DNA of 64,000 bases from a virus, in IMG/VR virus record IMGVR_UViG_3300034092_002634, positions 1 to 64,000 of that record. One strand, written 5' to 3'. Below the pieces are notes generated by a model that saw only the letters and a program-made list of their open reading frames with translations, made no database searches and was not told the DNA's origin. The stretch's first letter is position 1. Each line of letters starts with the position of its first letter. Shown here piece by piece: positions 24,401-63,011 of this stretch. The position numbers and the translations under genes were made by a program.

Positions 24401-27400
24401 CAACAGACAGTACAGGTCGATCCGCAGAAGGTGCTCGATCTTCCAGAATCATACGAGCGATCTCGGTTGAAGCAGCATTTAGCACACTGGTAGTTACAGA
24501 TTCAGATGAATCTGTAGGAGACACGGTTACTCCTAAATCTTGAAGAATTGCCTTATCTTCTTCAGCTAGCTTGTCTATTTCCTCGATTTTTTGAAGTCTT
24601 GCAGCAACATCTTCATTTTTTGCACGTATTCCTTGGTTAACTCTTCGCGCACGCTGTATATCCCACGATGGCTGGTGCATTTCGGGAGGATTGGACTCAT
24701 CCTCAATTGCAAAATCCTCAAGCATCGCCCGCTTAAGTTTTAAACGATCTCTTTTTTTACTTTCTTCTGATTTTTCCTTAGAAGCTGGATCAGACGCAAG
24801 TAAATTGGCGCGCTCTATCAGCGCTTGAGCTGCTTCAGGGTTTTCGGCTGCGTTGTTGAGTATAGCCGTAAGATCTTCCGGATTCCAAGAATCTCTATCT
24901 TTTTCGTCTTCCGGTGCCATAGATATGGCAGCACCTATAATATTTCCAAAGTCTAACCCAACGAATGGTGAATCTGTTGAAATTTCGCCATTTTCCATGT
25001 CCAGACCAAGTCTAGCAAACGCATCTAGAAGCGGCGGCATTCCGCTTTCTTGAGTGCCTTCTTTAATACCGCGATTTGCTCTTTTTTTGAGCGGTTCAAA
25101 ACTCTCTATTTCTGCTTGTCTTTTTTCTTCTTCGGGTTTTAGTAAACTATCTAATTTTTCTATTTCAGAGTCTAATTGTGCTATGTATTCTTCTGAGGGC
25201 ACGCTATCAAAAAGTTCTTCTACAAGTTCGTCAAAAACAGATTCTTGTTCTGCTCGGGACCCAGGTGCCTCATATGAGTATGCAAAGTTTGGCCGCTGGT
25301 ATTCTTGTATAGTTACAGGGCCGGTAACAGATTGCTTCTCAATTTGTCTTTTTTTAGATCTTATTGTAACTTCTTGAAGTGTTTTTAGTTTTTCAGTACG
25401 TTGTATTTCCTGCTCAAGCGCTGCTACTTTTTCCTCCCCTGCAGCTATTTCCTGATCTACTATTGTTTGTGCATCTTCTCCGGTTATTGCTGCTTTTTTC
25501 TTTGCTTCTAGCTCAGTCAACTCAGCAGTCAATTCGATCATTTTTTGCGTTTGTTCGTTGCTAATTGGAGTTTCTTCTTGATCGTTTGTAATTTCCCCTG
25601 ACGCTACCATTGCCTGCAGTGCTACTAAAGCTTCTCGACCAGCAGCCACGTCTCTTTGAGTACTCATTCTACTAGCGTCTATCTGACCAATTGCAGCGGA
25701 AAGCGGCAGTATTTGAACTCCTTGAGTTTCAAAATGAGTTGCCGCAGGTGATACGCTTTGAACTCTACGCATGTAAAACGCATCAGTTGTTGTTGGAGAA
25801 ATTGCAACAGGCACGTCAGCTTTAGGGTCGAACACCACTCCGAGTTCTTCTTGCGCCTCTCTTTCAGCGGCTTGCCATTGTGTTTGACCAGGATCAACAG
25901 TACCCATTACCGGAATGGCTACTCCTCTCCCTTTGTACGATTTTGTAGACTGCCCGACAACAACCATTGGCTCGGATTGACCTGGTACAAAGAAATAAGG
26001 TACTGCTCCTGCAGAAGCTCGATTACTTGCAGAAGTATCGGGTACATTATCTGGTGTAATTGCCGAAACCTCCGGCATTACCTCAGGACCGACAGAAAGA
26101 CCTAAAGTTTCGGCTACTGCAGCGTTTACAACTCTTGATGCATCACTGCCAGGAACTTCTGGAGAAATATCAATTCTACCCGTTTTTGCAAATCTTTCAC
26201 TTATCTGCTCTGGATAATCTGCGGTCAGCGGTAAAGTGCTGCGTCTTGACATGTACGTAAGCTCACCGTGTGATACATCTGGGTGAACATACGTTCGTCC
26301 TGCTACTTGACCTTGGCCCGTTACTCCTCTTTCTGCTGCTTCTCTTGCAAGTTTAGTTGCGGGAGATTCTAATGCTGCTATCTCTCCTTGTACTCTTGCT
26401 ATTTCTTCGTCTATTGTTTCTGGTGTTGAAATTACTGATACTGGAGTTTCTGGTGTTGCAGTTTCCGATGCGGTAGTCAATATTCCCCGTTTTACAAGTT
26501 CTCCCTCAATTGCCTGAATATTAGCTTCTGTAACTACTTTAGCTTTTCTTGCACTTATTGGCCGAGTTTGCTCAGCTGCTTCATACTCTTTTTGAGCTCG
26601 ATGCGCCTCGTCTCTTGCTTTGAAAACTTTTTGCATTTCCGGTGTTTGTTGCAATCTTTGTAACGTGGCTTTATTTTCTTCAGCTTCCTCGTAACTTAGG
26701 GAATTTCTTTTTAAGCGTGCCTGTAATGCTGCATCGTATTCATCGACAATATCTTTATGTGTTAGTTCAATCAGATTTAAAAGCGATTTTTTTCGCTCAA
26801 ATTTATCTTTAGCTCTTTCTATATCTTCTTGACGTTCTTTTTCTAATCTTTCATCTATGTCTGGCTCGTCAGTCATCGCTTGCTTTATCTGACTTAGTTT
26901 ACGTTTTTCTTGTGCTAAAGACGCCTCTAAATGCTCGGTAGATTGAGTTTCGCTAAATGATTCTTTAACAAGTCCGCCAGTCTTTACTACAGGACCTATT
27001 TGCTCGCTTCCCGTAATACCTATAAAACTTCGGTCGTCTTGCAAAGTACCCAACTCCCCCTCGTCAAGAAGCAGTCTTTCACCTAAGCCAACAAAACCTT
27101 CGGTATCGACCTCTGGATCTAGTTTACTAAATTGTCCGCTATGACTGTATGCATCGGACGCTAAGAAAACACGTGCCGGAGTTTTTGATTCAACTGCCAA
27201 AACCCTGCCTTCATGCATAATTCCGCTTTCAGTAGCCCCAATTGCCGCAGTCGAAGGTCCTGTATATCCACCTTTATCTTCGCCCAGCGTTTCTTTAGAA
27301 ATACCTAGGTCAGCTGATTCTATTAAAGCGTCTCCGGCAGTAACAAATTCATGCTTGTAGCCTTCTGAACTTCTTGTTCTGCGGTAAGCCGCGAACGTAG

Positions 27401-30400
27401 CACCAGCAATTTGTCCGGAATCTTTTTTATCTTGCCTACTATGTAAATATTTTATAAGTTCGCCAACAGTTGGGCTTGTTCCGGCTTCTTCAAATGGTTT
27501 TAAAAATTCTATAAATTGGTTTCTTGATTCATCCGTTTTCTGCAAACCTGCGCGGTTTAACATAAGTCTAGCAGTCGAATCTTTGTCATCTGCTGCAAAA
27601 AGTTGTAAAAGGTCGTTTACTTCGGTTTGTGCTGATCTATTATTGACTCTTGCTAGAATTGATTCGGTTGTAAACGGCTCGTCTGCGGGTAAATTAGCAG
27701 CTTCCTGTACCAGCATTTCTGCTAAATGTGTAGAAAACCAAGCTTTACTGACTCCATCAGCCACTGCTGCAGTAAGTGTACCTGTTTCCGCATTTTGACG
27801 GATGGCTAGTCTATCTTGATTTCCTTTTGCTTCTTGTTCTTCCTTAGAAGCTAAAAACGCGACAAAGGCCGGAGATTCTATAAGTTGATCTTCTCCAGTA
27901 GTCGAGTGTACAAAAACTGACTCATCCTCGGCTGTAACATCTTCGGTAATATTTTTTCTTTCTGTAAGATTTATTCTAGGGATTTTTAAAGGTACGGCGT
28001 TTTCGTCTATTGCTATTTCTTCATCTATTGTATCAGCATAAGATAAAACATCAATCGCTTTTTCTGAACCCGCACCTTCTGACCTCATGTCACTAATGTC
28101 TTTTTTAACTGCTGCAATTTCCCCGTCAACGTCTGATTCTTTAATTACAGCTTCAACTGCCTTAGCGGGACCATCTCCAGGTAATTCTGCTTCTAACGCT
28201 GCTCGTTCTTCTCTTAGTTTTTGCAGATTATCTAGCTTAGCTTTATGAGCCATCAAGTTAGTAAGGCGTTGCTCTTGAGTACCAGTTCCGTATCCTTGAG
28301 ATTCGTCAATCTGGTATCGGCCAGTTTGATTAAAAATTTCCTGCATGATGCCTAAATCGTAAATTGCACCACTTCTCGTCGCGGGGTCAATATTGTCCAT
28401 TTGGGCAATTGTGGAAAGATATTCAAATTTTTGAGAAATAGGATCTGGTTCCGATGCTTTGTAAGTAGCAAGTTTTTGCTTAAGGATCTTTAGTTGATTG
28501 TTTTTTTGATCTATAACCGGAAGTATTTTATCTGCTTCGTGAGGTGCTAAAGCTATTCTGCTTCGCATTTCTTCTATTTCTGCAGTTAATTGCTCAAACT
28601 CACGCATTGCTTCTTGAATTTTTATTTCATTTTCTACGTTGCGGCCATACGCACCACCGACAACTTGACCAGACTCTTGGTTTGCAACTTCTGCACCCTT
28701 GCCCAACAAGCTGTAAGACGCTCCTTGATCAGGAACGGCTGCAGCTACATCCGGACCCGTACCAACTAGTCGGTCCTGTCTTCCTAAAACTCGGGCTGCA
28801 AACTGAGGCATACCTTCGCCTGACTGCACGTTGTCAGTTAATAAATTGCTGAACAACGAAAGCGATCGGTTAACCGCTGCAGATACATCGGTTGTGTTTA
28901 TGTTAGCAGGATCAAACATCGCTAAAGCGCGAAATTCATCTTGAAACCCTGCTGGAGCAACCCCGGCTGTTTCGTAATCCGAAATCATTTGAGTGACTTC
29001 ATCAACTCCCATGCCGGCAGCGCCACCTCGTCGCCTAATTGAAGCAACTATTTGATTTTTTATTGCTGGGGCTGCCAAAGTCAACACGCGTTTAATTAAT
29101 TCTTTGGGATCCATCGACGTGTCTAACTCAGCAAGTTGCTTAAGTGATTCAGAATCTATCGCTTGCAGATGCGGAAGTTTAGCTTGCACCTCTTGAAATA
29201 GACTCTGCTCTTCTGCGTCAAGGTCGGTTGAAGTTGCTAACTTAGCATACTCAATTAAGGGAATACCGCCAGAGCCGTAACTACCCATTTCTGCGGATGC
29301 TTGAACAATTGATTGCAAACCTTTCTTTGTTCTGTAGCCACCACCAAGCGATTGATCAAGCTCTTCTCCCTCAAGCATTTTACCGCTGGCGTCTGTCGCA
29401 CGTGCTGCATGATACATACCAGTAATGACATTACCCGCAGAAGCAGACTGTCGAGATAAACCAAAAGCATCACTTATAATTTCGATAAACTCTCGATTTT
29501 GCTGACCTGACGATACTGTGCCGGCTGAGTCTAACTGCTGCGTAATTGGCGTAGTTTGATAGCGGTCTAGTGCCATAGACTGACCGGACGTCATATACTC
29601 TACTAACGACTGTACGGGACTAGTTCCATAAGAGGGCCTTGCTGGAATTGTGAGTCCCGATTGTGCAAGTCCCGCAGAAACTTCCTGAGCCTTGCTCATA
29701 ATCGGCGCTACCGCATCAGGTGTTGCAGGAATGGATCCAATAGACTGTTTAAATAAAACAGTTAGTGCTTGATCTCGCGTTAACGCCGGAGCTGTGTTAC
29801 TGCCCGGAAGTGCTATCTGTCCACGTCTTTGCGCTAACTTTTTTTCCTCTTCTGGATTTTCAGATTCAGCCAGAATCTCATCCAGTAACTGTATCTCTTT
29901 GCCAAGCTTTGCCGACTCAGTTCTGTAGCGATTAGCCATTGCTGGAGCCGCAGTTACCATACTGAGATCCGCCTGATCTCTCTGATAAACAAGTCTTTCG
30001 CGCAAACGTTTTGCGTGAGTTACTGCCAACGTAACTTCCTGTTCTTGTTCCGGAGCAACTGTCTGCTCTACAAAACGACTAGCGGACTGATCTGAAACAG
30101 CCCCTGTCGAAGTATATTGATTTATTAAATCGCCCGCAAACAAAGCAACAAACTTTCGTACTGGATCTCCAGTAACTATCGCCCCTCTAGGTCCCCGAGT
30201 TCCAGCCATTCTACCAAAAGCTGTTGTGTGTTCTGACAAAATTGAACTAGATTGAATCGCCTCCACAACCATTTTTGCAAGAGATTCAGGCAAGTCTACA
30301 GTCTGCCCTGCGATCGAAGCGGGCCTTATGTTTCCTTCTTCTATGTCCTGCATAACGGTTGAAAAGAGCGCGTCAACCGCCTTTTGTACTTCGGCGTCCA

Positions 30401-42604: not shown

Positions 42605-43255
42605 ATGGCAAGAAATCGAAGGTTTGATGAGATTTTGAAGGATTATTCCGACAAGTATGACCTTGCTACGCTTTCATCTCCAAATGACAAAGCTAATTTG
42701 GAGATGCTTATTAACAATCAAATTATTGTTGAAAGCGTTCAGGCCAAACTTCAAGAACTTACGCAGGATGATCCTGTTGACAACATCGATATGATTCAGC
42801 GACTCAGCTCTTCCCTTAAGGACATTATTGAGCGTAATCTTCAATTAGAACGCGCACTAGCTCTGGACCGCAAAACAAGAAACCAGAACTCTTCAGAATC
42901 AGTCGCTGAATACATTGTCCATCTTAAGCAAACAGCACAGGAGTTTTTAGAGAAACGTCTTGTTCGTATGTATTGCCCTAACTGTAAGATCTTGCTGGCT
43001 CGTTTTTCAATTATGCACGATCACAGCGCGTTTGCTCTAAAAGTAAACTGCAATCAGTGTAACAAGTCGGTAAGTGCAGAACGTGAGGAAAAAGACATCT
43101 TTTTTGACATTAAAGATTCGGGCTGGAGAAAGAAACATAAGTACTCAGTTAAAAGTGCTAAATCTTCTGGATCGAGCAGCTCGGACATAGAAGATGACAT
43201 TGTTCTTGAAGACGAGGACCAGGAGGAAAATTTAAATGCTGAAAGCGAAGATTGA
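42605..43255 (+). CDS. Putative terminase small subunit with Zn ribbon
   Basis: Directly upstream of and overlapping the large terminase; helical core, CPNC...CNQC, acidic tail. Confidence 0.5.
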   Translation: MARNRRFDEILKDYSDKYDLATLSSPNDKANLEMLINNQIIVESVQAKLQELTQDDPVDNIDMIQRLSSSLKDIIERNLQLERALALDRKTRNQNSSESVAEYIVHLKQTAQEFLEKRLVRMYCPNCKILLARFSIMHDHSAFALKVNCNQCNKSVSAEREEKDIFFDIKDSGWRKKHKYSVKSAKSSGSSSSDIEDDIVLEDEDQEENLNAESED

Positions 43256-45830
43256 CGACGCAGAGTTGGCGTTAATTGAGGTTTTGGAGGATCCTGTGTG
43301 GTTGAACGAATTCCTTCGCTCTACAAATAACGGCGATATGAACCGTTCAAACTGGCCTTCCGAGGAATTCACTTTTCGCCCTTATCAAAAAGAAATCTTG
43401 ACCGACCAGACACGACACGTAGTAATCACTGGTGGCCGAGCAATCGGAAAATGCCAACCAGCCTCCGCTAAGGTTTTTACAAACGAGGGGTATAAAACAA
43501 TTACGGATCTTCTTAAGAAGCCATCTTTTGTTACCTATGGTTATTCCGTGAACGGTGATTTTACACAACGGCGTGCTTTTGTGCGTAAAGACAGGTGGAA
43601 GAAGTGCTACTCAATTACTACTAAATCAGGACATATGCTTAAGGCAACGGACGTTCATCCTGTAATGACTCCAAAAGGATTTATCTTAATGGCGGATCTT
43701 CAAGTCGGTGATTTAGTTGCGGTTATGAATAAATTGCCAACTGATCACTGCGTCAGTAACACACTGAGTTGGGCGGAACTTCGCATACTTGGTTATTTAG
43801 CAGCAGGTAGTATTTACTTCAAGCCCGCAGGAGGCATTGTCCCTCGTTACAAGAGAATAGATGCCGAGATTAAAGAGATAGCAAACTCACTGTACCTCAA
43901 CTATCGTAAAGACAGCGAAGGTCGCGTTTATATAGAGCGCATGAAGGCTGGCGGAGTCCGTCACTATCTGAATCAGCTCAAGATTGAACTTGGGGCTTAC
44001 GGCAAAGACTATAGACGAGTTTTTAAACTTGACTGGCTAAAGACGCAGCGCACTGAAAACATAAAAACGTTTCTCGAGGCTGCTTACGCTCAGCACGGTG
44101 AGCTGACTCTCGATCGCGTGGCTATTAAACTGCACAACTGGAAATACGTGCAGGACTGGCAAGAACTTCTGCTTTACTTCGGCGTAAAAACGCGATCGTA
44201 CAAGGTTGCTGATCACGCAGACGAGCATCACATATTTGACATAGACGACTCACAATGGATTGTTGAATCGTACGACAAAAACGCCGCTCACGTTTTTTGG
44301 AACCAGTTCAAAGTTCCCGGAGTTTCGGCATCCATAAAGGATCCCGCTTTGGTATCGAGTGACTGGTACTGTTGGGAGCCCATTAGTAGTAAGCAGCGCC
44401 ACGGAATGCAGCTGACATACTCTGTTCATGTTTACCACGACGAAACATACATCAGTGAGAATGTTGTTGTGCACAATTCTGTAATTTTAGAAGATCTAAT
44501 AACTTATCAGGTTCTAAACTCTGCAATCGAGTTTCCAAAAACTCCAGAACAGCTTATGGTTACGCCTAACAGCAACCAATTGAATCCTATTCTAGACAAA
44601 GTTATTTTAAAGTTTACAATTTCCCCGCTGCTTAAGGACTTTTTGAACAATAACGTAAACCGATCTAAAGGTACGTTAGACTTTCAAATGGGTACTCGAA
44701 GACATCGGTTAAATGCGCGTATTGCAGGCAGTCGCGGTGAAAATAACTTGGTTGGTCTTCACATTCCCAAAATTATGGGAGACGAGTTTCAGCTGTTTCC
44801 CATGCCTGCATTTGATCAAATGCAGCCAACGCTAAATACCTGGGAACCGAAAGTGGAAGAACGATACTTCGGTGTTCCTAACGGAATGAGAAATACGGCT
44901 TTGTATGTCTTAGACGTAAAAACACCAAAGTTTAAGAAGTACCGTATTCCCGCACCAAATAACCCTTACTTTACAAAAGAGGACTGGGACGATGCTTTGT
45001 CTAAATACGGTGGTGAATCTGCAGATATCTTTCAGCAGTTAATTCTGGGTAAGCACGGATCTCCCTCGTTCCAGGTTATTTCTCGTGATCAAATGAAAAT
45101 ACTGCCGTTTGATTTCTACACGTATCGATACAGTTCCAACGAAAAAGATAAAGGTAGAACATATCAAGAGGCTTTGCCAGTCGTCAAGATACCCAAGTGC
45201 GACAGCGTTATTTTCGCAATAGACACCGGCTTTAGCGATCCGACAATTATACAAGTAATTGGATTGATTGATAATGTTTGGCATTCGCTGGTTCGTTACA
45301 GAATACAGCGTATTGACTATCCGGAACAAGAAAAAATTATAGACTACCTCGCGCGCGGGTACAACGCAAGCAGAATCGCCATCGACGTAGGAGCTGGCGG
45401 CGGAGGGGCAGGAATTGTACAGAGTCTTAAAACTCGTCCCGAATTCGCCTCAAGTAATTACGCAGCCAGAATAGAAGCAATTCAGTTCAACGAAAAGGTG
45501 GGCGTAGGCTCTATCTCCGACGAACAGGAAATAACTGAGTCGTTTAAAGCTTGGGCAACCACTGAGTTAATTCGTCAAATTACCAACGGGAATCTTGTAT
45601 TTTCCGAGGTAGACGCTGAGGGTATTTCACAGTTAGAGCGCGTAGCTCGACAACGCAGAGCTTCAGGACACATGCACTACTACGTCGTATCCCCACGCGG
45701 ACACGGTGAGAGTAATGATGACCACATCTACGCAAGCTATCTTTGTTTTATTGGCGCACTTCGTCTTCCGGTGGTTGCTCCTAAAAGCAACACATTGGCA
45801 CGATCAGCAGCCTATCACACAGTGAGGTGA
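43236..45830 (+). CDS. terL: Terminase large subunit, intein-containing
   Basis: FRPYQ (adenine-binding motif), Walker A GGRAIGK|S split by an intein, Walker B IMGDE, nuclease FAIDTGFSDPT...NDDH. Confidence 0.9.
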   Translation: MLKAKIDDAELALIEVLEDPVWLNEFLRSTNNGDMNRSNWPSEEFTFRPYQKEILTDQTRHVVITGGRAIGKCQPASAKVFTNEGYKTITDLLKKPSFVTYGYSVNGDFTQRRAFVRKDRWKKCYSITTKSGHMLKATDVHPVMTPKGFILMADLQVGDLVAVMNKLPTDHCVSNTLSWAELRILGYLAAGSIYFKPAGGIVPRYKRIDAEIKEIANSLYLNYRKDSEGRVYIERMKAGGVRHYLNQLKIELGAYGKDYRRVFKLDWLKTQRTENIKTFLEAAYAQHGELTLDRVAIKLHNWKYVQDWQELLLYFGVKTRSYKVADHADEHHIFDIDDSQWIVESYDKNAAHVFWNQFKVPGVSASIKDPALVSSDWYCWEPISSKQRHGMQLTYSVHVYHDETYISENVVVHNSVILEDLITYQVLNSAIEFPKTPEQLMVTPNSNQLNPILDKVILKFTISPLLKDFLNNNVNRSKGTLDFQMGTRRHRLNARIAGSRGENNLVGLHIPKIMGDEFQLFPMPAFDQMQPTLNTWEPKVEERYFGVPNGMRNTALYVLDVKTPKFKKYRIPAPNNPYFTKEDWDDALSKYGGESADIFQQLILGKHGSPSFQVISRDQMKILPFDFYTYRYSSNEKDKGRTYQEALPVVKIPKCDSVIFAIDTGFSDPTIIQVIGLIDNVWHSLVRYRIQRIDYPEQEKIIDYLARGYNASRIAIDVGAGGGGAGIVQSLKTRPEFASSNYAARIEAIQFNEKVGVGSISDEQEITESFKAWATTELIRQITNGNLVFSEVDAEGISQLERVARQRRASGHMHYYVVSPRGHGESNDDHIYASYLCFIGALRLPVVAPKSNTLARSAAYHTVR
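43452..44477 (+). mobile_element. Intein (342 aa) with degenerate LAGLIDADG endonuclease
   Basis: Starts CQPASAKV; block B KATDVHPV; ends ENVVVHN followed by +1 Ser; inserted in the P-loop. Confidence 0.92.
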
Positions 45831-55677: not shown

Positions 55678-55875
55678 TGGCGTCTGCTGGCACTCTGGGG
55701 CTTTCTAGGGAGCATTGAACATTATGTTCAGTTGTCGAAACGGGTTGATGCTTTTTGAAATTTTTCAGTATGACAAAGGTATGGAAGGTGTAGGTATGTA
55801 TAGGGTTTTTGACTACCTACCATCTACTGCTTGTGTAAGTAGTAGTAATCAACTGTCTTTGAAAGGACAAACATC

Positions 55876-56042: not shown

Positions 56043-56108
56043 ACAGCGAAACAATCTACTCAGTAATGAGTAGGTTGTATGCAGTTTATAACTGCACTGA
56101 CGAGCTGT
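56043..56108 (+). ncRNA. Type II hammerhead ribozyme
   Basis: Stem II strand acagc, GAAA, stem III caatctactc/gagtaggttg (10 bp), UA cleavage after 56079 (GUA triplet), stem I tgcagtt/aactgca, core CUGACGA, stem II strand gctgt; the full conserved core is present. Confidence 0.93.
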
Positions 56109-56150
56109 TCGTTAGTAATCAGTATTGTCTCTTTGAAAGGACAAACAACC

Positions 56151-56633
56151 ATGTTCGCAGTCATCATCACCGTCTTCGCAGTCATCGTCGCCATCCGCAT
56201 CATCAGCAGCATCACCGTCGAGATCACCACCCACCAGTACGATGTCGAGTGTGAGTGTGTCAAGTGTCAGCAGACCAGCAAGGAGATTCGCAACATGAGT
56301 AAGTTGAACGTCAAGTCCATCGAGGAATACGCAGCCATCTACGCTCAATGGGTATCAGTCGACACCTCAGTCGAAGAGTACTCGGCAGCTGCAGTTGACG
56401 TCATCATCACCACAACCGGCACTTGGAAGATGACTTACGTCGTCAACAAGTCGGTTAAGTTCACTGGCCGCACGTCATACACCGGCAAGACTTCGGGTTG
56501 GTTGTTCGAAAACGTCAACACCGGTGCAAGCGACATGTACCTCCAGATCAGTGGTAAGTCCTCCGCATGGGAAGCTCGCAACTGGTTCGGTAACGGTAAC
56601 TTCGCTGTCAACACCAAGGTCGCTGTCAAGTAA
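56151..56633 (+). CDS. Membrane-anchored protein with HxYDVECECxxC motif
   Basis: RBS; N-terminal TM helix; HQYDVECECVKC. Confidence 0.75.
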   Translation: MFAVIITVFAVIVAIRIISSITVEITTHQYDVECECVKCQQTSKEIRNMSKLNVKSIEEYAAIYAQWVSVDTSVEEYSAAAVDVIITTTGTWKMTYVVNKSVKFTGRTSYTGKTSGWLFENVNTGASDMYLQISGKSSAWEARNWFGNGNFAVNTKVAVK

Positions 56634-56642
56634 CTAACCAAC

Positions 56643-56672
56643 TAGCAACGCTCACCTGCTACAGGATGTGAG
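56643..56672 (+). ncRNA. Pseudoknot class A, copy 1
   Basis: S1 tagca/tgcta, S2 ctcac/gtgag, linkers acg, c, caggat. Confidence 0.75.
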
Positions 56673-57040: not shown

Positions 57041-57072
57041 CTGCAACGCTCACCTGCAGTAATGGATGTGAG
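57041..57072 (+). ncRNA. Pseudoknot class A, copy 2
   Basis: S1 ctgca/tgcag, S2 ctcac/gtgag, linkers acg, c, taatggat. Confidence 0.75.
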
Positions 57073-57130: not shown

Positions 57131-57496
57131 ATGAAGTCAGTCATCAACGCAGTCATCGGCATGTTCGTGTTGGTCGTCAGCCACTTGGTCATCTACTTCG
57201 TTCGCAACCTGAAGATGGGCTTCATCTTCGGCGTCGTCATGCTCACCTTGCTTGGCTTGGGCATCAGCGGCGAATTGCCTTCTATCGACATTGTCACCGC
57301 TAAGTGGGTAGGCATTCTGACCGTTGGGTACGCAGCTGTCGTTGCTGTATTCGGTGTGTTCGTAACCGCTTACGAGATTCGTAAGTACATGGCCAAGGAA
57401 GCAAAGGGCCAAGACACCTGGATTGAGCGGATTAACCTTCTTAAGGTTGTCTACAATGTTCCAGGATACAGCTTCCGCAACAACATCACCAAGTAG
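57131..57496 (+). CDS. Three-TM membrane protein
   Basis: RBS; three hydrophobic helices. Confidence 0.75.
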   Translation: MKSVINAVIGMFVLVVSHLVIYFVRNLKMGFIFGVVMLTLLGLGISGELPSIDIVTAKWVGILTVGYAAVVAVFGVFVTAYEIRKYMAKEAKGQDTWIERINLLKVVYNVPGYSFRNNITK

Positions 57497-57501
57497 TCAA
57501 C

Positions 57502-57535
57502 ACCGGAGTGGGCGGCAACCGGTCAACTTGCCCAC
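57502..57535 (+). ncRNA. Pseudoknot class B, copy 1
   Basis: S1 accgg/ccggt, S2 gtgggc/gcccac. Confidence 0.8.
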
Positions 57536-57538
57536 CAT

Positions 57539-57576
57539 TGGAGAAGTGATGCATCTCCAGCATAGATCAGCATCCT
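57539..57576 (+). ncRNA. Tandem pseudoknot class D, copy 1
   Basis: S1 tggaga/tctcca; loop ag-t-gatgc pairs with gcatc-ct. Confidence 0.55.
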
Positions 57577-57607
57577 TGCTGCGTTTGCAGCTAGAGGGGT
57601 ATTACCA

Positions 57608-57790
57608 ATGGGTAAGTACTATCGGTCCTCGGTGGTTGTTCGTTGGTTGGTGCACAGTCTGAGCGATTGTGCTATGAGACTGATGCCAATTGGTTTGTCT
57701 GATGTCGAGGACGGTAGTCTTCGGTGGAAAGCAGCCAACTGGCTGATGCGCAAGACTAGCGACTGGGCTGTCGCGCTTAAGAAGGTCTAG
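57608..57790 (+). CDS. Hypothetical protein
   Basis: 60 aa; RBS; fits the cassette pattern. Confidence 0.6.
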   Translation: MGKYYRSSVVVRWLVHSLSDCAMRLMPIGLSDVEDGSLRWKAANWLMRKTSDWAVALKKV

Positions 57791-57795
57791 TCCAC

Positions 57796-57834
57796 CGTGG
57801 AGTAAGCGGATAACCACGTTAAAAACTTGCTTAC
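57796..57834 (+). ncRNA. Pseudoknot class B, copy 2
   Basis: S1 cgtgg/ccacg, S2 gtaagc/gcttac. Confidence 0.8.
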
Positions 57835-57837
57835 CAT

Positions 57838-57875
57838 TGGAGAAGTAATGCAACTCCAGCATAGCACTGCATTCT
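57838..57875 (+). ncRNA. Tandem pseudoknot class D, copy 2
   Basis: S1 tggag/ctcca; loop ag-t-aatgca pairs with tgcatt-ct. Confidence 0.55.
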
Positions 57876-57932
57876 CGGATGACAATCATCTGAGCTATAG
57901 CTGCCATTGCAGCTAGAAAGGTACGCCTTACC

Positions 57933-58415
57933 ATGGGTAAGAAGTACAACACGTCCGCAGTCACCGTTCGTCCGATTGCCACCGGGGAGCTTGCCTTCCT
58001 GGTCGAGGCATGGGAGGGCATCAAGCCTTCCCGCAAAGCCGCGGTGACGGTGCGGATTGCTCGGGAGACCGAGCGTCCGGCCAACTGGCGGCCAAAGACC
58101 GACAAGATCGGTCGCCGTCCTCGGATTGAGGCGGTGGTGGCTGAGCGAGAAGTGGAGGAAGGGCCGCACGAGTGCGACTTCTCGATCAGCCGGTGGGAGG
58201 ATGTCATCTACCACCATAGCGGGTGGATTGACGTAACTATCGCACGGTGTGAGTGCGGTAGTTACAACATCACTCCGGAAGACCCGGAGATCCACATCTC
58301 CGAAGACGACCACGCTCACCAAGTGTGGATTATTAAAAAGTATAGGTGTAATCCTGTGGCGTACGTTTCCGAGTCGTACGAGGGCAGTTCGCCCTTCAAG
58401 AAGCTCGACCGGTAG
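57933..58415 (+). CDS. Hypothetical protein
   Basis: 160 aa; RBS; HEC...CECG possible metal site. Confidence 0.7.
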   Translation: MGKKYNTSAVTVRPIATGELAFLVEAWEGIKPSRKAAVTVRIARETERPANWRPKTDKIGRRPRIEAVVAEREVEEGPHECDFSISRWEDVIYHHSGWIDVTIARCECGSYNITPEDPEIHISEDDHAHQVWIIKKYRCNPVAYVSESYEGSSPFKKLDR

Positions 58416-58419
58416 TCAC

Positions 58420-58459
58420 ACGTGGAGTCAACGGATAACCACGTTAAAAACTTGTTGAC
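58420..58459 (+). ncRNA. Pseudoknot class B, copy 3
   Basis: S1 acgtgg/ccacgt, S2 gtcaac/gttgac. Confidence 0.8.
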
Positions 58460-58512
58460 CATTGTATATACATAATTCTGTGTATATACTAGCTCTCGAA
58501 AGGAGCACGGCT

Positions 58513-58737
58513 ATGGAATTCCTTGAGGTATTAGTTCGCGGTAAGACGGTCAAAGATGTCAGCGTCGAGCAGATCGCGCGCAACATCTACGAAGTCACGG
58601 TGGGCCATGGCGGCGGGGAAGAGGGCCCCGACGGTGAATGGCGTGGCTACGTAATCGGTCGTAGCCAAATTATCATCGCCAGTAGCATGTACGATGCGTG
58701 CTACAAGGCGCATCACTTAGCCAAGATAATTGGCTAA
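58513..58737 (+). CDS. Hypothetical protein
   Basis: AAGGAG RBS before MEFLEV. Confidence 0.7.
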   Translation: MEFLEVLVRGKTVKDVSVEQIARNIYEVTVGHGGGEEGPDGEWRGYVIGRSQIIIASSMYDACYKAHHLAKIIG

Positions 58738-58743
58738 GTGTGT

Positions 58744-58777
58744 TGCAGAGTGGGCGGTAACTGCATAACTTGCCCAC
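58744..58777 (+). ncRNA. Pseudoknot class B, copy 4
   Basis: S1 tgcag/ctgca, S2 gtgggc/gcccac. Confidence 0.8.
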
Positions 58778-58831
58778 CATTGCATACAGTATAATTCGGT
58801 ATTGTATGCTAGCTCTCGAAAGGAGCATATC

Positions 58832-59113
58832 ATGCATAAGTATGATGTAGAGTGTGAGTGTGTAGTGTGTGTGGCGTGGACCGACCGGATCGGGCATAAG
58901 TTGGAAACTGTGGCAACATACGTTGACAACAGTGGACACGATTACGACATTGAGTGCGAATGCACTGAGTGTCAGAAGATCACGGTGGCCGAGCGCGAAA
59001 TCCAGATGTATGTCCTGGGGGAACCAATCTCTGTCCCGGTTACGATCAATCCAGAGGTTCAGGAATTCGCTGACAAGAAGTTGTCGGATAGTATTCGGTT
59101 CGATCAGCACTAA
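58832..59113 (+). CDS. Protein with two HxYD[VI]ECECxxC motifs
   Basis: MHKYDVECECVVC...HDYDIECECTEC. Confidence 0.75.
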   Translation: MHKYDVECECVVCVAWTDRIGHKLETVATYVDNSGHDYDIECECTECQKITVAEREIQMYVLGEPISVPVTINPEVQEFADKKLSDSIRFDQH

Positions 59114-59122
59114 TCAGCACTA

Positions 59123-59153
59123 GAGCTCTCGGCAAAGCTCGTTAAACACCGAG
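59123..59153 (+). ncRNA. Pseudoknot class C, copy 1
   Basis: S1 gagc/gctc, S2 ctcgg/ccgag, L3 gttaaaca. Confidence 0.75.
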
Positions 59154-59162
59154 TAGAAGGGA

Positions 59163-59753
59163 ATGTCTATGTATGACATTCTGGTTGTGACGGTGTTGGC
59201 ATTCGTGATGATGGCCGTGTTATTGAAAGGTGGTCGGTAATGAGTCCTGCAGAACAACTATACGTCGAGAAGTTGTGTCGCCAGTACTATCAGGCGCTCT
59301 ATGGCGTAGATTACGTCGTAGAGTTCGGGCATATCTTGCTGTTTCCGCATAAGCATGCGGAGGCTGTGGTCAAGCTCGAGAAACTCATGGAGAATGTCGG
59401 TTACCAGGTAGTTCGCCTGGTAGAAATTCGGAAAGGGTAAACTAGTGCACAAGATCACCCTGTTAGACGTTCGGCATAGTGCTGCCGAAAAGCTGGCCAA
59501 AGAGAAACTGCGGGTAGAAGTACCCGCAGAATACAACGGGGATTGGTTCCCCGCTGTCATGTACGTACCTGCGTATCCCCGTCAGGAGGATCACAGCGTG
59601 GATGCTTACACGTTCAAATGTGTGAGCGTCAACGCTAGCCTGAAACGTCTTAGACGGCTCTACACGGCCCTTGGTGGACGCGCAATGCCTCCGTGGTCCG
59701 GTATATTGGTTGACGGCGTCGAGGTCAACGGGAACGTCAAGGACGGCGAGTAG
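59163..59753 (+). CDS. Three coupled small genes (59163/59169-59240 membrane peptide; 59240-59440; 59445-59753)
   Basis: TAATG coupling and a 4-nt gap; no motif recognised. Confidence 0.6.
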
Positions 59754-59758
59754 TCCAC

Positions 59759-59792
59759 CTGGAGTGAGGGGTAACCAGTATAACTTCCTCAT
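59759..59792 (+). ncRNA. Pseudoknot class B, copy 5
   Basis: S1 ctgg/ccag, S2 gtgagg/cctcat. Confidence 0.75.
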
Positions 59793-59823
59793 GTACTAAT
59801 TTAGCTCTTGAAAGGAGCGTGTC

Positions 59824-60075
59824 ATGCACAAGTATGACGTTGAGTGCGAGTGTGTCGAGTGTCAGAAATCCTGGAGGGTGGAGCACATCTGGGAGACCGT
59901 CAACTCCCAGGCGGAAGCAGACTGGACTTTCTCGGGTGACACCGAGGACGAGGTCGTCGCCGCTGCGTACAAGCGCAAAGAGACTCTTCGCCCCACTGAA
60001 GAAGAGTGGATGGCTGTGGAGGACAAGTTCTTTCTCTACAAAAAGGGGAAGTTCTTGGGAGAGTTTTCCCTTTAG
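59824..60075 (+). CDS. Protein with HxYDVECECxxC motif
   Basis: MHKYDVECECVECQK; AAGGAG RBS. Confidence 0.75.
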   Translation: MHKYDVECECVECQKSWRVEHIWETVNSQAEADWTFSGDTEDEVVAAAYKRKETLRPTEEEWMAVEDKFFLYKKGKFLGEFSL

Positions 60076-60081
60076 TAGTCC

Positions 60082-60115
60082 ACGTGGTAGTCGGATAACC
60101 ACGTTAAACACCGAC
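60082..60115 (+). ncRNA. Pseudoknot class C, copy 2
   Basis: S1 acgtgg/ccacgt, S2 gtcgg/ccgac, L3 taaaca. Confidence 0.8.
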
Positions 60116-60149
60116 ATCATTTTATGTGCAAAAGCACAAGGAGAATCCA

Positions 60150-60626
60150 ATGCCTAATTGGTGCAGTAACGTTGTTCAACTCAGCAAAGACGGGTACGAC
60201 TTTACGAGCATGGAAAAACGCATCCCTACCGAGGGACTCTATGCGCAATTCCTTCCCGCACCCGAGGGACTTGACGACCACCAACTGACGGATTGGTGCT
60301 ACGAGAATTGGGGCGTTAAGTGGGACACCCAGAACGCAGATGCCGGCGTCGATGGCGACCGCATTCAACTGTGTTTTGATAGCCCATGGAGCGCACCACG
60401 GCAGTGGCTCGCCTATATGGTGAGCATCGGGTTCGATGTCCGAGGTGCATTCTGGGAGCCAGGCATGGCCATGGGCGGTGTCTACACTACCTTGCACGAT
60501 GGAGCACTAGTTGCTCCAGCATTGGAGTGGACGCAGGACAACCTCGTCGAACGGGGTAGCGAAATGTACGAATATCTCATCAGTTACGGACTGATCTCAG
60601 AAGATGATGAAATGATCAACGACTAG
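60150..60626 (+). CDS. DUF1281/YubB ferredoxin-like fold protein
   Basis: MPNWCSN...DWCYENWGVKWD...FDSPWSAP...FWEPGM. Confidence 0.8.
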   Translation: MPNWCSNVVQLSKDGYDFTSMEKRIPTEGLYAQFLPAPEGLDDHQLTDWCYENWGVKWDTQNADAGVDGDRIQLCFDSPWSAPRQWLAYMVSIGFDVRGAFWEPGMAMGGVYTTLHDGALVAPALEWTQDNLVERGSEMYEYLISYGLISEDDEMIND

Positions 60627-60631
60627 CTCGC

Positions 60632-60665
60632 ACGAGGTAACCGGCAAACCTCGTTAAACACCGGT
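60632..60665 (+). ncRNA. Pseudoknot class C, copy 3
   Basis: S1 acgagg/cctcgt, S2 accgg/ccggt, L3 taaaca. Confidence 0.8.
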
Positions 60666-60695
60666 ATCTTTTTATGCTCACGAAAGGAGCACGGT

Positions 60696-60965
60696 ATGTT
60701 GTATTGCATGATGGCGGTGTCTCGATGGCTTACTGGTGACCCGGACTTCGGGTACGATGGGGAGATGATCCCCAAGGTCACCGCGGTGATCTACATCCGT
60801 GAACAGCCCTTTGAGGACTGGGAGCGGGAGGAAGGCAGGAATATCTGGAAAATCAAGCTCGGTGAGTCTACTGTTGTGTCAATGCATAGGTGGACAACTG
60901 ATCTCTCTCCAGTGGAGATCAGTACCAAGCATGACTGCGAAGTCATTGACTGGTCCAAGCGGTAA
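60696..60965 (+). CDS. Hypothetical protein
   Basis: AAGGAG RBS; 89 aa. Confidence 0.65.
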   Translation: MLYCMMAVSRWLTGDPDFGYDGEMIPKVTAVIYIREQPFEDWEREEGRNIWKIKLGESTVVSMHRWTTDLSPVEISTKHDCEVIDWSKR

Positions 60966-60974
60966 GTGGAGATC

Positions 60975-61008
60975 TCGGAGTGAGGGGATAACCGATGTAA
61001 CTTCCTCA
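60975..61008 (+). ncRNA. Pseudoknot class B, copy 6
   Basis: S1 tcgg/ccga, S2 tgagg/cctca. Confidence 0.75.
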
Positions 61009-61041
61009 ATAGTTATATTAGCTCTTGAAAGGAGCAACGCT

Positions 61042-61670
61042 ATGCAAGTACTGCAAGCACGGGGAATTATCCTGGAAAATCTGGAAGCGCTTCGCGAGTT
61101 CAAGCCCGAGGACTTGCGGCTGGTTGCGTTATACAACGCAGCAGCAGGGCAGTCCTGGGCCGAGTTCAACCTTATCCGCACAACGTGTGCGGACTGGGAC
61201 GAGCTCACCTACAACAACTTTGAGGAGGAAGACCTCAAGAATTTGTGGGACGAACTCTCTGAGCATTTCAGCAAAATCTGGGAAGGAACCAAGTAATGCG
61301 AGTACGTGGCAAGCAGCCGCATGTCTATCGTGAGTCAGAAACGGCTACGATAGCGCGGTACACCAACTTGCTCCCTCCTGTGTACGAGGCAAGTGCACAG
61401 GAGTGGAAGGTGTTTGGCCGTCAGGATACCATTGTCCGTGTTGGTACGCGGGCGACTATGCTGACGTATCTCAAGGGTAGGCGCGATCAGTATACTCGTA
61501 TGCACGGATACGAGGATTTGACTGACCCCTGCCTCAGGCTGAGGTGGGATACTAGTCTGCGGTGCTTTCACGTGACAGAGCCGCAGTTGGACCTACCCGT
61601 GTTCTCAGGTACTAAGTACATGTGTACGTGGTATCTGGTTGGCCGGTCGGACGAGTTCCAAGGCCTGTAG
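61042..61670 (+). CDS. Two coupled hypothetical genes (61042-61296; 61296-61670)
   Basis: AAGGAG RBS; TAATG coupling. Confidence 0.65.
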
Positions 61671-61673
61671 TGT

Positions 61674-61704
61674 GTTGACAACGCTCACCTGTGTCGGATG
61701 TGAG
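61674..61704 (+). ncRNA. Pseudoknot class A, copy 3
   Basis: S1 aca/tgt (or gaca/tgtc), S2 ctcac/gtgag, L3 ggat. Confidence 0.7.
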
Positions 61705-61746
61705 AAAGTAATTATAGCCCTGAGGGGCAAGAAGGAGAGTGTGACT

Positions 61747-62025
61747 ATGGGTAAGGTTATCACCGCAGCGGTCTTCATCAGCATGTTCAACAGCTCATTC
61801 CGGGACAGGCTCGAGTGGATGAGTGAGGAAGTTCGCGACCTCACGGTGGACGCGCTCACCCGGGAAGGCTACGACGAGGACGATTTGCGTCGGATGTCGG
61901 ATGCCTTTGCCAAGCTGGAGGAAAAGTCCAGCGACTTGATCGAGACAGACTACGCCAACGATCTGCTGAACGTGGACGAAGAGAGTCTCGATGAGGGTTA
62001 CTACTCGGATGGTGAAGACGAGTAG
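61747..62025 (+). CDS. Highly acidic small protein
   Basis: AAGGAG RBS; D/E-rich. Confidence 0.7.
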   Translation: MGKVITAAVFISMFNSSFRDRLEWMSEEVRDLTVDALTREGYDEDDLRRMSDAFAKLEEKSSDLIETDYANDLLNVDEESLDEGYYSDGEDE

Positions 62026-62034
62026 TAGGTAGCG

Positions 62035-62067
62035 GACTGGCAACTCTCGCCTGCGTCGGATGCGAGG
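62035..62067 (+). ncRNA. Pseudoknot class A, copy 4
   Basis: S1 gac-(tg)-gca/tgc-gtc, S2 ctcgc/gcgag, L3 ggat. Confidence 0.75.
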
Positions 62068-62109
62068 AAGTAATGTATAGCCCTGAGGGGCAAGAAGGAG
62101 AGTGTGACT

Positions 62110-62571
62110 ATGGGGACTCAGCATTGCGTCTTGATCCAGGACCGTTTCGACAACGAGGCCAAGTTCAACTTGGTCATCACCCACGACGTACCCTTCCACC
62201 CGGAAGCGGTCTTGTGGATTGCTCAGCTGTACACGGCAAAGCGTTGGGGGTCACAGCCCGACGTGTACCGCACTGCCGAGCTCGATGTCAGCGTCGACTG
62301 GAACGACATCGTGTACGTTCCGGCGCTAAATGTCCTGGACTTCGAGTCCTCGGACTACTGGCCAACACAGAAGCAGCTGAGGTTGGCTCGGATGGCGTTG
62401 GATTCGTACCGTATGTTTTATGACGAGTTGGCAAGGCAGGAGAAGATTATCTCCGGCTATGTCCGTCAGGAGATGCACAAGCAGTACGGTGAGGACACCG
62501 TCGCTATGCGTCTTCCCACCTTCCACAGCCGTGCTTCGGCATTGGACATCCTAGTTCATCTGGCACGGTAA
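62110..62571 (+). CDS. Hypothetical protein
   Basis: AAGGAG RBS; about 153 aa. Confidence 0.7.
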   Translation: MGTQHCVLIQDRFDNEAKFNLVITHDVPFHPEAVLWIAQLYTAKRWGSQPDVYRTAELDVSVDWNDIVYVPALNVLDFESSDYWPTQKQLRLARMALDSYRMFYDELARQEKIISGYVRQEMHKQYGEDTVAMRLPTFHSRASALDILVHLAR

Positions 62572-62577
62572 GTCCAC

Positions 62578-62611
62578 ACGAGGTAGCCGGCGAACCTCGT
62601 TAAACACCGGT
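62578..62611 (+). ncRNA. Pseudoknot class C, copy 4
   Basis: S1 acgagg/cctcgt, S2 gccgg/ccggt (G-U), L3 taaaca. Confidence 0.8.
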
Positions 62612-62979: not shown

Positions 62980-63011
62980 GTCTGGCAACTCCCACCTGCG
63001 ACGGATGTGGG
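62980..63011 (+). ncRNA. Pseudoknot class A, copy 5
   Basis: S1 gtc-(tg)-gca/tgc-gac, S2 cccac/gtggg, L3 ggat. Confidence 0.75.

Follow-up and report, generated by a model that had tools for sequence, protein, structure and literature searches.

Gene array and intergenic pseudoknots

The DNA analysed here (the window) comprises bases 1-64000 of IMGVR_UViG_3300034092_002634, an IMG/VR virus record of 82,652 bp from an uncultured freshwater phage, complete according to CheckV, and the elements in question are small RNA pseudoknots (hereafter knots) that recur between the genes of one array of this phage. The array occupies a + strand block at ~55.7-66.9 kb, which encodes ~27 small genes and, at its far end, an ArdC-like gene together with a few of larger size; it stands out by 51-53% G+C and a positive GC skew, compared with 41-47% G+C across most of the genome, being ~8 points richer in G+C than the remaining genome. 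Just upstream of it, a protein is encoded with an AAA ATPase domain and with Spore_III_AA-like and PTPase-like matches. An earlier note on this DNA had described, between 57502 and 62611, ten copies of a pseudoknot family with two classes, B and C; all ten are found there, on the + strand, in intergenic spacers and 4-9 nucleotides (nt) past a stop codon. They are listed below with their parts in the order S1, L1, S2, L2, S1′, L3 and S2′ (S, stem strands; L, loops).

57502..57535, + strand, B1: ACCGG-A-GUGGGCGG-CAA-CCGGU-CAAC-UUGCCCAC; 5 nt past the TAG of gene 57131-57496
57796..57834, + strand, B2: CGUGG-A-GUAAGCGG-AUAA-CCACG-UUAAAAAC-UUGCUUAC; 5 nt past TAG; no Rfam match in 57785-57935
58420..58459, + strand, B3: ACGUGG-A-GUCAACGG-AUAA-CCACGU-UAAAAAC-UUGUUGAC; 4 nt past TAG
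58744..58777, + strand, B4: UGCAG-A-GUGGGCGG-UAA-CUGCA-UAAC-UUGCCCAC; 6 nt past TAA
59123..59153, + strand, C1: GAGC-U-CUCGG-CAAA-GCUC-GUUAAACA-CCGAG; 9 nt past TAA; near-identical copy in the related IMG/VR record G002
59759..59792, + strand, B5: CUGG-A-GUGAGGGG-UAA-CCAG-UAUAAC-UUCCUCAU; 5 nt past TAG
60082..60115, + strand, C2: ACGUGG-UA-GUCGG-AUAA-CCACGU-UAAACA-CCGAC; 6 nt past TAG
60632..60665, + strand, C3: ACGAGG(U)-(U)A-ACCGG-CAA(A)-CCUCGU-UAAACA-CCGGU; 5 nt past TAG
60975..61008, + strand, B6: UCGG-AG-UGAGGGG-AUAA-CCGA-UGUAAC-UUCCUCA; 9 nt past TAA
62578..62611, + strand, C4: ACGAGG-UA-GCCGG-CGAA-CCUCGU-UAAACA-CCGGU; 6 nt past TAA; S1 shortened in the ortholog of the related record G001

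This order of parts is that of a classical H-type pseudoknot, and every pair of stem strands reported for S1 and S2 is complementary as described, the variant gtgagg/cctcat with one G.U pair. The loop residues that had been singled out are also constant in the window (A or UA as L1, a terminal AA in L2 and an AAC within L3), whereas the C(UU) placed in the class B consensus ahead of S2′ is mostly helix and not linker, because S2 extends by two conserved G.U pairs, between the GG before L2 and the UU after AAC, to a class B helix of 8 bp. An H-type descriptor constrained in its loops finds all ten knots (and one overlapping site) within 5.1 kb, against five other matches elsewhere on the two strands of the 82.6-kb genome (~160 kb of sequence) and two to seven per shuffled genome, and the match cluster of a generic two-helix genome scan is confined to the + strand at 56.6-60.7 kb; chance is excluded as the origin of the ten-copy cluster.

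Relatives, covariation and fold

Megablast of the region against GenBank phages gave no match. Pattern scans of IMG/VR identified five related records (G001-G005, 41-80 kb, two of them with terminal repeats), all with the same kind of array, which is also carried by 20 freshwater metagenome loci. The productive probe for relatives was the pattern of a further knot class, class A, described below; strict-sequence patterns gave mostly chance matches in IMG/VR, and the ArdC-like gene as probe led to eight loci, with knots only in the relative already known. The class A pattern had no match in a collection of bacterial and archaeal genomes, which thus offers no prophage or host clue, and the 20 runs holding the phage are all DNA metagenomes from lake, freshwater or subsurface sources.

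The earlier note had suggested looking for the family in related phages, and knots are indeed present in G001-G005 and in the 20 freshwater loci. Since MAFFT could not align 43 copies in one structural register, family-wide counts were taken from a junction-anchored parse of sites 2-12 nt past the stop of an open frame of at least 40 codons, which in the five relatives, the 20 loci and this genome yields 88 copies of 27-40 nt. Of these, 55 are distinct, and S1 occurs in 22 variants and S2 in 38. When the 27-nt subfamily was taken as the basis of a covariance model (R1), the 21 matches all belonged to that subfamily, and the model did not generalise. In a comparison run to reduce circularity, the first 62 nt after array gene ends in five clade genomes were parsed within the same 2-12 nt, with a knot at 39 of 120 real sites and in 12 of 2400 shuffles (0.5%).

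The proposed covariation of both stems is borne out by several lines of evidence. Among 43 curated copies from six genomes, three to six pair types occur at each stem position, and the 5′ strand of S1 pairs fully with the S1′ of another copy in 14% of combinations (8% for S2). For an equal-length subfamily of seven members, a pair-count tool scored 63 of 63 cells as paired and five of nine pairs as changed on both sides; this covariation score was reached by none of 500 shuffles, and slid controls were 20-48% paired. Double changes also separate near-identical copies, as in GCAGG/CUUGC, GCUGG/CUAGC and GUAGG/CUUAC, or in GUGCGGAG/UUCCGCGU and GUACGGAG/UUCCGUGU. The elements are an H-type pseudoknot family with compensatory changes in both helices. 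Among 384 S2 pairs, 96 are G.U; the complementary strand would have A.C mismatches in their place, and the fold therefore belongs to the + sense RNA and not to the DNA.

S1 measures 4-7 bp and S2 5-9 bp, L1 is a single nucleotide in 31 of the 55 distinct copies (with S2 of 5-8 bp) and L3 has 3-8 nt (with S1 of 4-7 bp), lengths that fit the textbook minima if the outermost pair of the 8-bp S2 helices frays. Nested folding, uninformative for pseudoknots, returns S1 alone or S2 alone for each copy, with unremarkable z-scores. Outside the stems, the invariant residues are nearly all adenines, which lie where the helices join and in the two loops that cross the grooves; by analogy, this is the look of the minor-groove triples in compact pseudoknots, which would be expected to make small knots mechanically tough. 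Base triples, one of the two roles that the earlier note had proposed for the constant AA and AAC, are in keeping with this pattern.

Position relative to stop codons and on the transcript

The spacing between stop codon and S1 has a sharp maximum at 5 nt, the value of 37 of the 88 copies; 65 copies have 4-6 nt and no copy has fewer than 3, whereas the next start codon lies at a variable 16-98 nt from the knot. The 5-nt spacer is itself variable in sequence. At this spacing the knot meets the mRNA entrance of a ribosome whose A site contains the stop codon: if the stop occupies +4 to +6, S1 begins at +12 after a 5-nt spacer, immediately beyond the helicase site of the ribosome, a geometry shared by frameshift knots, so that termination can proceed with the knot unmelted. 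Where two genes overlap and are translationally coupled, no element is present. Downstream of the knot, an AU-rich single-stranded linker or more hairpins lead to the Shine-Dalgarno (SD) sequence, often in a small GCUC..GAGC hairpin, and in the shortest spacers the knot ends 12-14 nt ahead of it.

In these spacers, on the + strand of the block, sigma-70-like promoters and intrinsic terminators are not above chance, which places the knots inside a transcript. The block at ~55.7-66.9 kb would thus be one early polycistronic mRNA of ~11 kb, and the knots probably mark gene boundaries on this one long message. A candidate promoter lies ahead of the array:

55745..55774, + strand, candidate early promoter (TTGATG, 18 nt, TATGAC), read by eye; conserved in G002

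In G002, tandem CUUGUUCUCA units stand just upstream of the array promoter (L034:70-125) and, in G004, a terminator-like hairpin followed by TTGATGCTTATCCACACA is repeated several times ahead of the array (L049:165-3900).

The 5-nt spacing is also that of frameshift and readthrough stimulators, which lie 5-9 nt past the A-site codon, and UAG precedes 70 of the 88 knots compared with 25% of the stops in the rest of the genome, so that the knot might act on the terminating ribosome through readthrough, frameshifting, stop pausing or the control of reinitiation. In size and architecture the knots do resemble the luteovirus-type frameshifting knots (like that of beet western yellows virus) and retroviral readthrough knots, H-type folds of ~28-35 nt with an L1 of 1-2 nt and an A-rich L3, 5-8 nt past the A-site codon. 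They differ from the luteovirus-type knots in having a true stop in the A site, no slippery site or downstream frame, and an L2 of 3-4 nt and not 0-1. A recoding signal was rejected: slippery heptamers are absent, the median extension past the stop is 9, 10 and 8 codons in the 0, -1 and +1 frames, and the long extensions, found in about one third of cases, are spread over the three frames with none preferred. A suppressor tRNA was looked for in the phage and none was found, its tRNA genes being tRNA-Leu(UAA), tRNA-Met and tRNA-Arg(UCU). The UAG bias, for its part, is a property of the array and not of the knots, because spacers without knots show it too; within the array, UAG (mostly UAGU) ends 9 of 13 long genes and UGA none, whereas the stops outside it are TAA in 43%, TGA in 33% and TAG in 25% of cases. 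An action on the terminating ribosome is for these reasons quite improbable.

Other structures in the same slot

The slot just past the stop codon is not reserved for classes B and C. H-type knots without any loop constraint follow 50 of 121 array gene ends as opposed to 2.7% of shuffles, a set that includes class A and at least two further classes in the relatives, and the array has a type II hammerhead ribozyme candidate near either end, one past its first gene and one past its last.

56643..56672, + strand, class A knot UAGCA-ACG-CUCAC-C-UGCUA-CAGGAU-GUGAG, in the same slot, its loops unrelated to those of B and C
57041-57072, 61677-61704, 62040-62066 and 62985-63011, further class A copies
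56044..56107, + strand, type II hammerhead ribozyme candidate, 3 nt past TAA, with a complete core (GAAA, UA, CUGACGA) and three stems that form
66839-66904 of the genome (L076:2839-2904), second type II hammerhead candidate, directly past the last gene of the array, with full core and three stems

Class A knots stand 6-10 nt past stops in the window and have an L1 of ACG (or ACU), C as L2 and an L3 ending in GGAU; their S1 covaries, and so does S2 (CUCGC/GCGAG and CCCAC/GUGGG, with CCUAC/GUAGG in G002). In the relatives, more knot classes occupy the same slot (L046:4743-4780, L034:2113-2150, L048:2360-2390), such as CGUCCG-GU-ACUCCC-G-CGGACG-UUAAUAUCG-GGGAGU and GUUUC-GAAC-GCCGA-U-GAAAC-GUACUU-UCGGC. 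The hammerhead candidate at 56044-56107 scores 18.8 bits with the Rfam model RF02276, below its gathering score of 37, and the 8.5-kb search at E<=10 also gave a weak match to freshwater-2 at 56056-56153 (25 bits, threshold 49.9). A hammerhead descriptor finds 13 in the clade, two here and eleven in relatives, all on the coding strand and 0-5 nt past stops, with covariation in stems I, II and III and a stem III of 12-16 bp.

The slot is thus filled interchangeably by B/C knots, other knot classes and type II hammerheads, with a stable structure at the cistron end as the common denominator, and this equivalence, together with the fixed ~5-nt offset from the stop, is the most informative feature of the system. 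Unrelated loops in the same slot indicate that fold and position matter more than a specific pocket, and the catalytic or ligand pocket that the earlier note had proposed alongside base triples is not supported, given that the slot in relatives holds knots with loops such as the ACG, C and GGAU of class A.

The diversity of loops bears equally on the idea that the knots are operator sites, bound by an RNA-binding protein or by an endoribonuclease from phage or host, which could be a global repressor of early-gene translation or an enzyme that recognises and processes the structure. Many copies with a common shape and an A-rich loop signature on one early transcript would suit co-ordinate control, only 12-14 nt separate knot and SD in the shortest spacers, and the AAA ATPase-domain protein is encoded just upstream. 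Nevertheless, the knot is anchored to the upstream stop and not to the start codon, none of ten array proteins tested matches any Pfam family and no RNA-binding or RNase candidate is recognisable among them, and classes with different loops would need several proteins or one that is purely shape-specific, all of which makes an operator decidedly unlikely.

Comparison with known ribozymes and riboswitches

No Rfam family matches the knots in the whole window at gathering score; the 8.5-kb region at E<=10 contains no knot match, 151 nt around B2 searched with lax filters returned noise only, pistol and preQ1 included, and 60 kb of the relatives' arrays at E<=1 gave nothing relevant. The earlier note had been reminded of the pistol ribozyme while pointing out that its P2 and P3 are missing, and this holds. 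The likeness consists of a 5-bp P1-like hairpin, a loop that pairs downstream and an A-rich strand next to it (CCACGUUAAA), in both cases associated with phages. The pistol fold requires P1, P2, P3 and a pseudoknot from the P1 loop to the P2/P3 junction (Harris et al. 2015, PMC4604425), and the family model carries 10 conserved nucleotides; in the knots, by contrast, the partner strand follows directly after the A-rich linker of 4-8 nt, P2 and P3 are absent and the model (RF02679) finds no match, so that membership fails. Pistol RNAs cleave themselves at a GU junction. Membership of the type II hammerheads (RF02276) fails as well, the CUGANGA, GAAA and UH core being absent from the knots and found only at 56044-56107 and 66839-66904. 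Mimicry of tRNA or of an RNase P substrate was set aside, since an ACCA end occurs in one subclass of class B only and the stacked helix has 9-15 bp.

A close precedent for the arrangement is found in the clusters of hammerheads and other self-cleaving ribozymes that flank single genes in phage and prophage operons (Perreault et al. 2011, PMC3088659), which share the slot, and probably also the operon logic, of small orphan early genes on a long transcript and one structured RNA per boundary past the stop; the clustered prophage hammerheads are believed to divide long phage transcripts into mRNAs of single-gene length (PMC3088659). The knots differ as 27-40-nt two-helix pseudoknots without the hammerhead core.

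The B/C knots, and perhaps the other knot classes of the slot, might likewise be self-cleaving ribozymes of one or more new and very small classes, the smallest natural ones yet seen at 27-40 nt, which together with the type II hammerheads would cut the 11-kb early transcript just past the stops into gene-length pieces. The knots do occupy the exact slot of the hammerheads in the same arrays, new ribozyme classes have historically been found beside hammerheads and twisters in phage DNA (PMC4604425), the unpaired A, AA and AAC are conserved, and cleavage immediately 5′ of S1 would spare the few nucleotides past the stop that normal termination needs. Such a class would nevertheless be smaller, with its two helices, than any natural self-cleaving RNA; the conserved loop residues are nearly all A, as is typical of A-minor contacts, with no conserved G or C outside the helices as a candidate for acid-base catalysis; no candidate cleavage dinucleotide is conserved and the 5-nt spacer is variable; the Rfam ribozyme models are without match; and self-cleavage would have to extend to at least three or four knot classes whose loops are unrelated. 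Self-cleavage by the knots is unlikely on balance, if by no means negligible.

The shape of the knots also recalls the preQ1-I riboswitch (RF00522), another H-type fold of ~34 nt with a 5-bp P1 and an A-rich tail that enters a short P2, and the YAA junction loop (Y, pyrimidine) could conceivably line a pocket, as in a small riboswitch-like aptamer or a multi-copy sponge for a small molecule. Here, however, the residue before S1′ is an A and not the ligand-pairing C, queuosine gene context is lacking, and S2, with its 5-9 bp, is long and should be stable without a ligand. No Rfam riboswitch model matches, S2′ and the SD are separated by at least 12 nt and terminators are absent beyond chance from the spacers, which leaves no expression platform, and ten or more copies precede unrelated orphan genes without Pfam match. 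A preQ1-I aptamer would belong in the 5′ UTR of queuosine or preQ1 genes and have the SD or a terminator within its P2 region. Assignment to preQ1-I thus fails on the model, the gene context and the platform, and a ligand-binding function in general has only the slightest probability.

Proposed structural punctuation of the early message

What the knots of several classes, the hammerheads and, further downstream, long hairpins have in common is an autonomous stable structure at the 3′ end of a cistron, within a long transcript and as near to the stop as the ribosome allows. The explanation that fits best, with a probability of roughly 45%, is that the knots are protein-independent structural punctuation elements of the early polycistronic mRNA, which cap or insulate each cistron. 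A structural role is favoured because the conserved residues are adenines of the groove-crossing loops and the junction, the pattern of minor-groove triples. A single-nucleotide L1 (A) would cross the deep groove of S2, the A-rich L3 would lie in the minor groove of S1 and the YAA junction would part the helices, making the knot a compact plug, robust to mechanical force, wherever two cistrons meet. While the A site is occupied by the stop codon, the knot would sit unmelted at the mRNA entrance and stay folded over repeated rounds of translation, with almost no naked RNA between the translated reading frame and the structure. The spread of exonucleases and decay from one cistron to another would be stopped, the upstream gene would keep a 3′ cap once the AU-rich linker is cut, and the next ribosome-binding site would be kept free from interference by upstream sequence. 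Hammerheads in the slot would reach the same end by cutting, as they would leave the 12-16-bp stem III hairpin on the upstream piece. It is this stabilising or insulating function that we infer; the fold, its RNA polarity, its position and spacing, the slot equivalence and the lack of promoters, terminators and recoding are observations in the arrays.

Known systems offer partial parallels to such punctuation. The repetitive extragenic palindromic (REP) elements and bacterial interspersed mosaic elements of Escherichia coli and the RNase III-processed hairpins of the T7 early region are likewise repeated structures just past stops in polycistronic mRNAs, where they act as exonuclease barriers and set the fate of the upstream cistron, as the knots may do. 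REP hairpins near stops stabilise upstream mRNA and, if fewer than 16 nt lie between hairpin and stop, interact with the ribosome as it terminates (PMC12306157); the knots share with them a stable structure within a polycistronic transcript just past the stop, but differ from these simple or imperfect hairpins in being pseudoknots, with A-rich loops and a sharp 5-nt offset. The viral exoribonuclease-resistant RNAs (xrRNAs; PMC8374639) are also small pseudoknotted intergenic folds, and the knots, like them, could halt a processive exonuclease and define RNA ends; unlike the knots, those RNAs ring their own 5′ end, have other conserved cores and act on the eukaryotic Xrn1.

Several points weigh against structural punctuation. 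A plain hairpin would block exonucleases too, which leaves the preference for a pseudoknot with A-rich loops unexplained; the hammerheads indicate that cleavage is acceptable in the slot, which fits a ribozyme equally well; and, by the precedent of E. coli REP elements, a structure so near to the stop might lower the expression of the upstream gene. The runs that hold the phage are of DNA only, so that RNA ends, stability and expression are a matter of inference.

The fold type is ordinary, and the family is uncatalogued and, within the sequence searches made here, confined to one freshwater phage clade; to our knowledge, the rule of a stop codon, 5 nt and a knot interchangeable with hammerheads has not been described. 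Phage early operons punctuated by structured RNA are a recurring arrangement, and the interchangeability of a minimal 27-nt knot, its sister classes and genuine hammerheads 5 nt past the stop means that very small constructs would suffice to test the role of boundary RNAs. As passive plugs, the knots would provide natural and portable elements to insulate or stabilise the cistrons of a polycistronic message, and would be the counterpart in a bacterial virus of exonuclease-resistant RNAs; if they cleave, they would be a new and exceptionally small ribozyme class. The family is absent from Rfam and deserves a place among the resources used to annotate freshwater phages.

Mosaic junctions in the population

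The spacers behave as mosaic junctions in the phage population, and the breaks fall exactly at knot borders. One population contig swaps the segment from 57952 to 58421, with the upstream gene replaced exactly up to the edge of B3, another joins 62575 to 60630, a cassette rearrangement across C4 and C3, and loose contig ends from other lake samples lie at 57502, 59749 and 60973. The same knot also follows different genes in different genomes, and the combinations of S1 and S2 are mosaic. The conserved spacers could on this evidence be patches of DNA-level homology for cassette shuffling, like the early promoter and stem-loop cassettes of T4-type phages. However, the compensatory changes and the abundant G.U pairs show selection on the + strand RNA fold, the divergence of stems between copies lowers homology, and recombination is expected as a by-product at any conserved element and is probably one here, which makes a primary role in shuffling highly improbable.

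Further features of the spacers and the genome

B1-B4 are followed by a conserved CCAUUG (window 57536-57574 and 57835-57873), beyond which a second module can be discerned:

57540..57574, + strand, second hairpin/pseudoknot module after the CCAUUG of B1, with a paralog after B2 at 57839-57873; read by eye from the two copies and relatives

Its loop GAUGC (AAUGCA in the paralog) pairs with GCAUC (UGCAUU) ~10 nt downstream in a possible second pseudoknot, and the relatives have AGUACA/UGUACU and AGUGCA/UGCACU pairings. A repeated ribosome-binding module, uaGCUCu(c/u)gaaagGAGC, holds the SD in a 4-bp hairpin at 58490-58512, 58810-58831, 59800-59823 and 61020-61041, and the first three genes have the variant cucuuugaaaggacaaac.

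The higher G+C of the array, next to phage tRNAs (Leu-UAA, Arg-UCU, Met) that suit AT-rich codons, suggests that the early genes are tuned to a host of higher G+C. Elsewhere in the window, a single open reading frame of 6477 codons occupies 12483-31916 on the - strand, with a NUDIX domain (about amino acids 1980-2034, 25.8 bits) as its sole Pfam support at E<0.001, and an 864-amino-acid reading frame at 43236-45830 combines terminase RNaseH-like and intein splicing domains and is probably an intein-containing large terminase.

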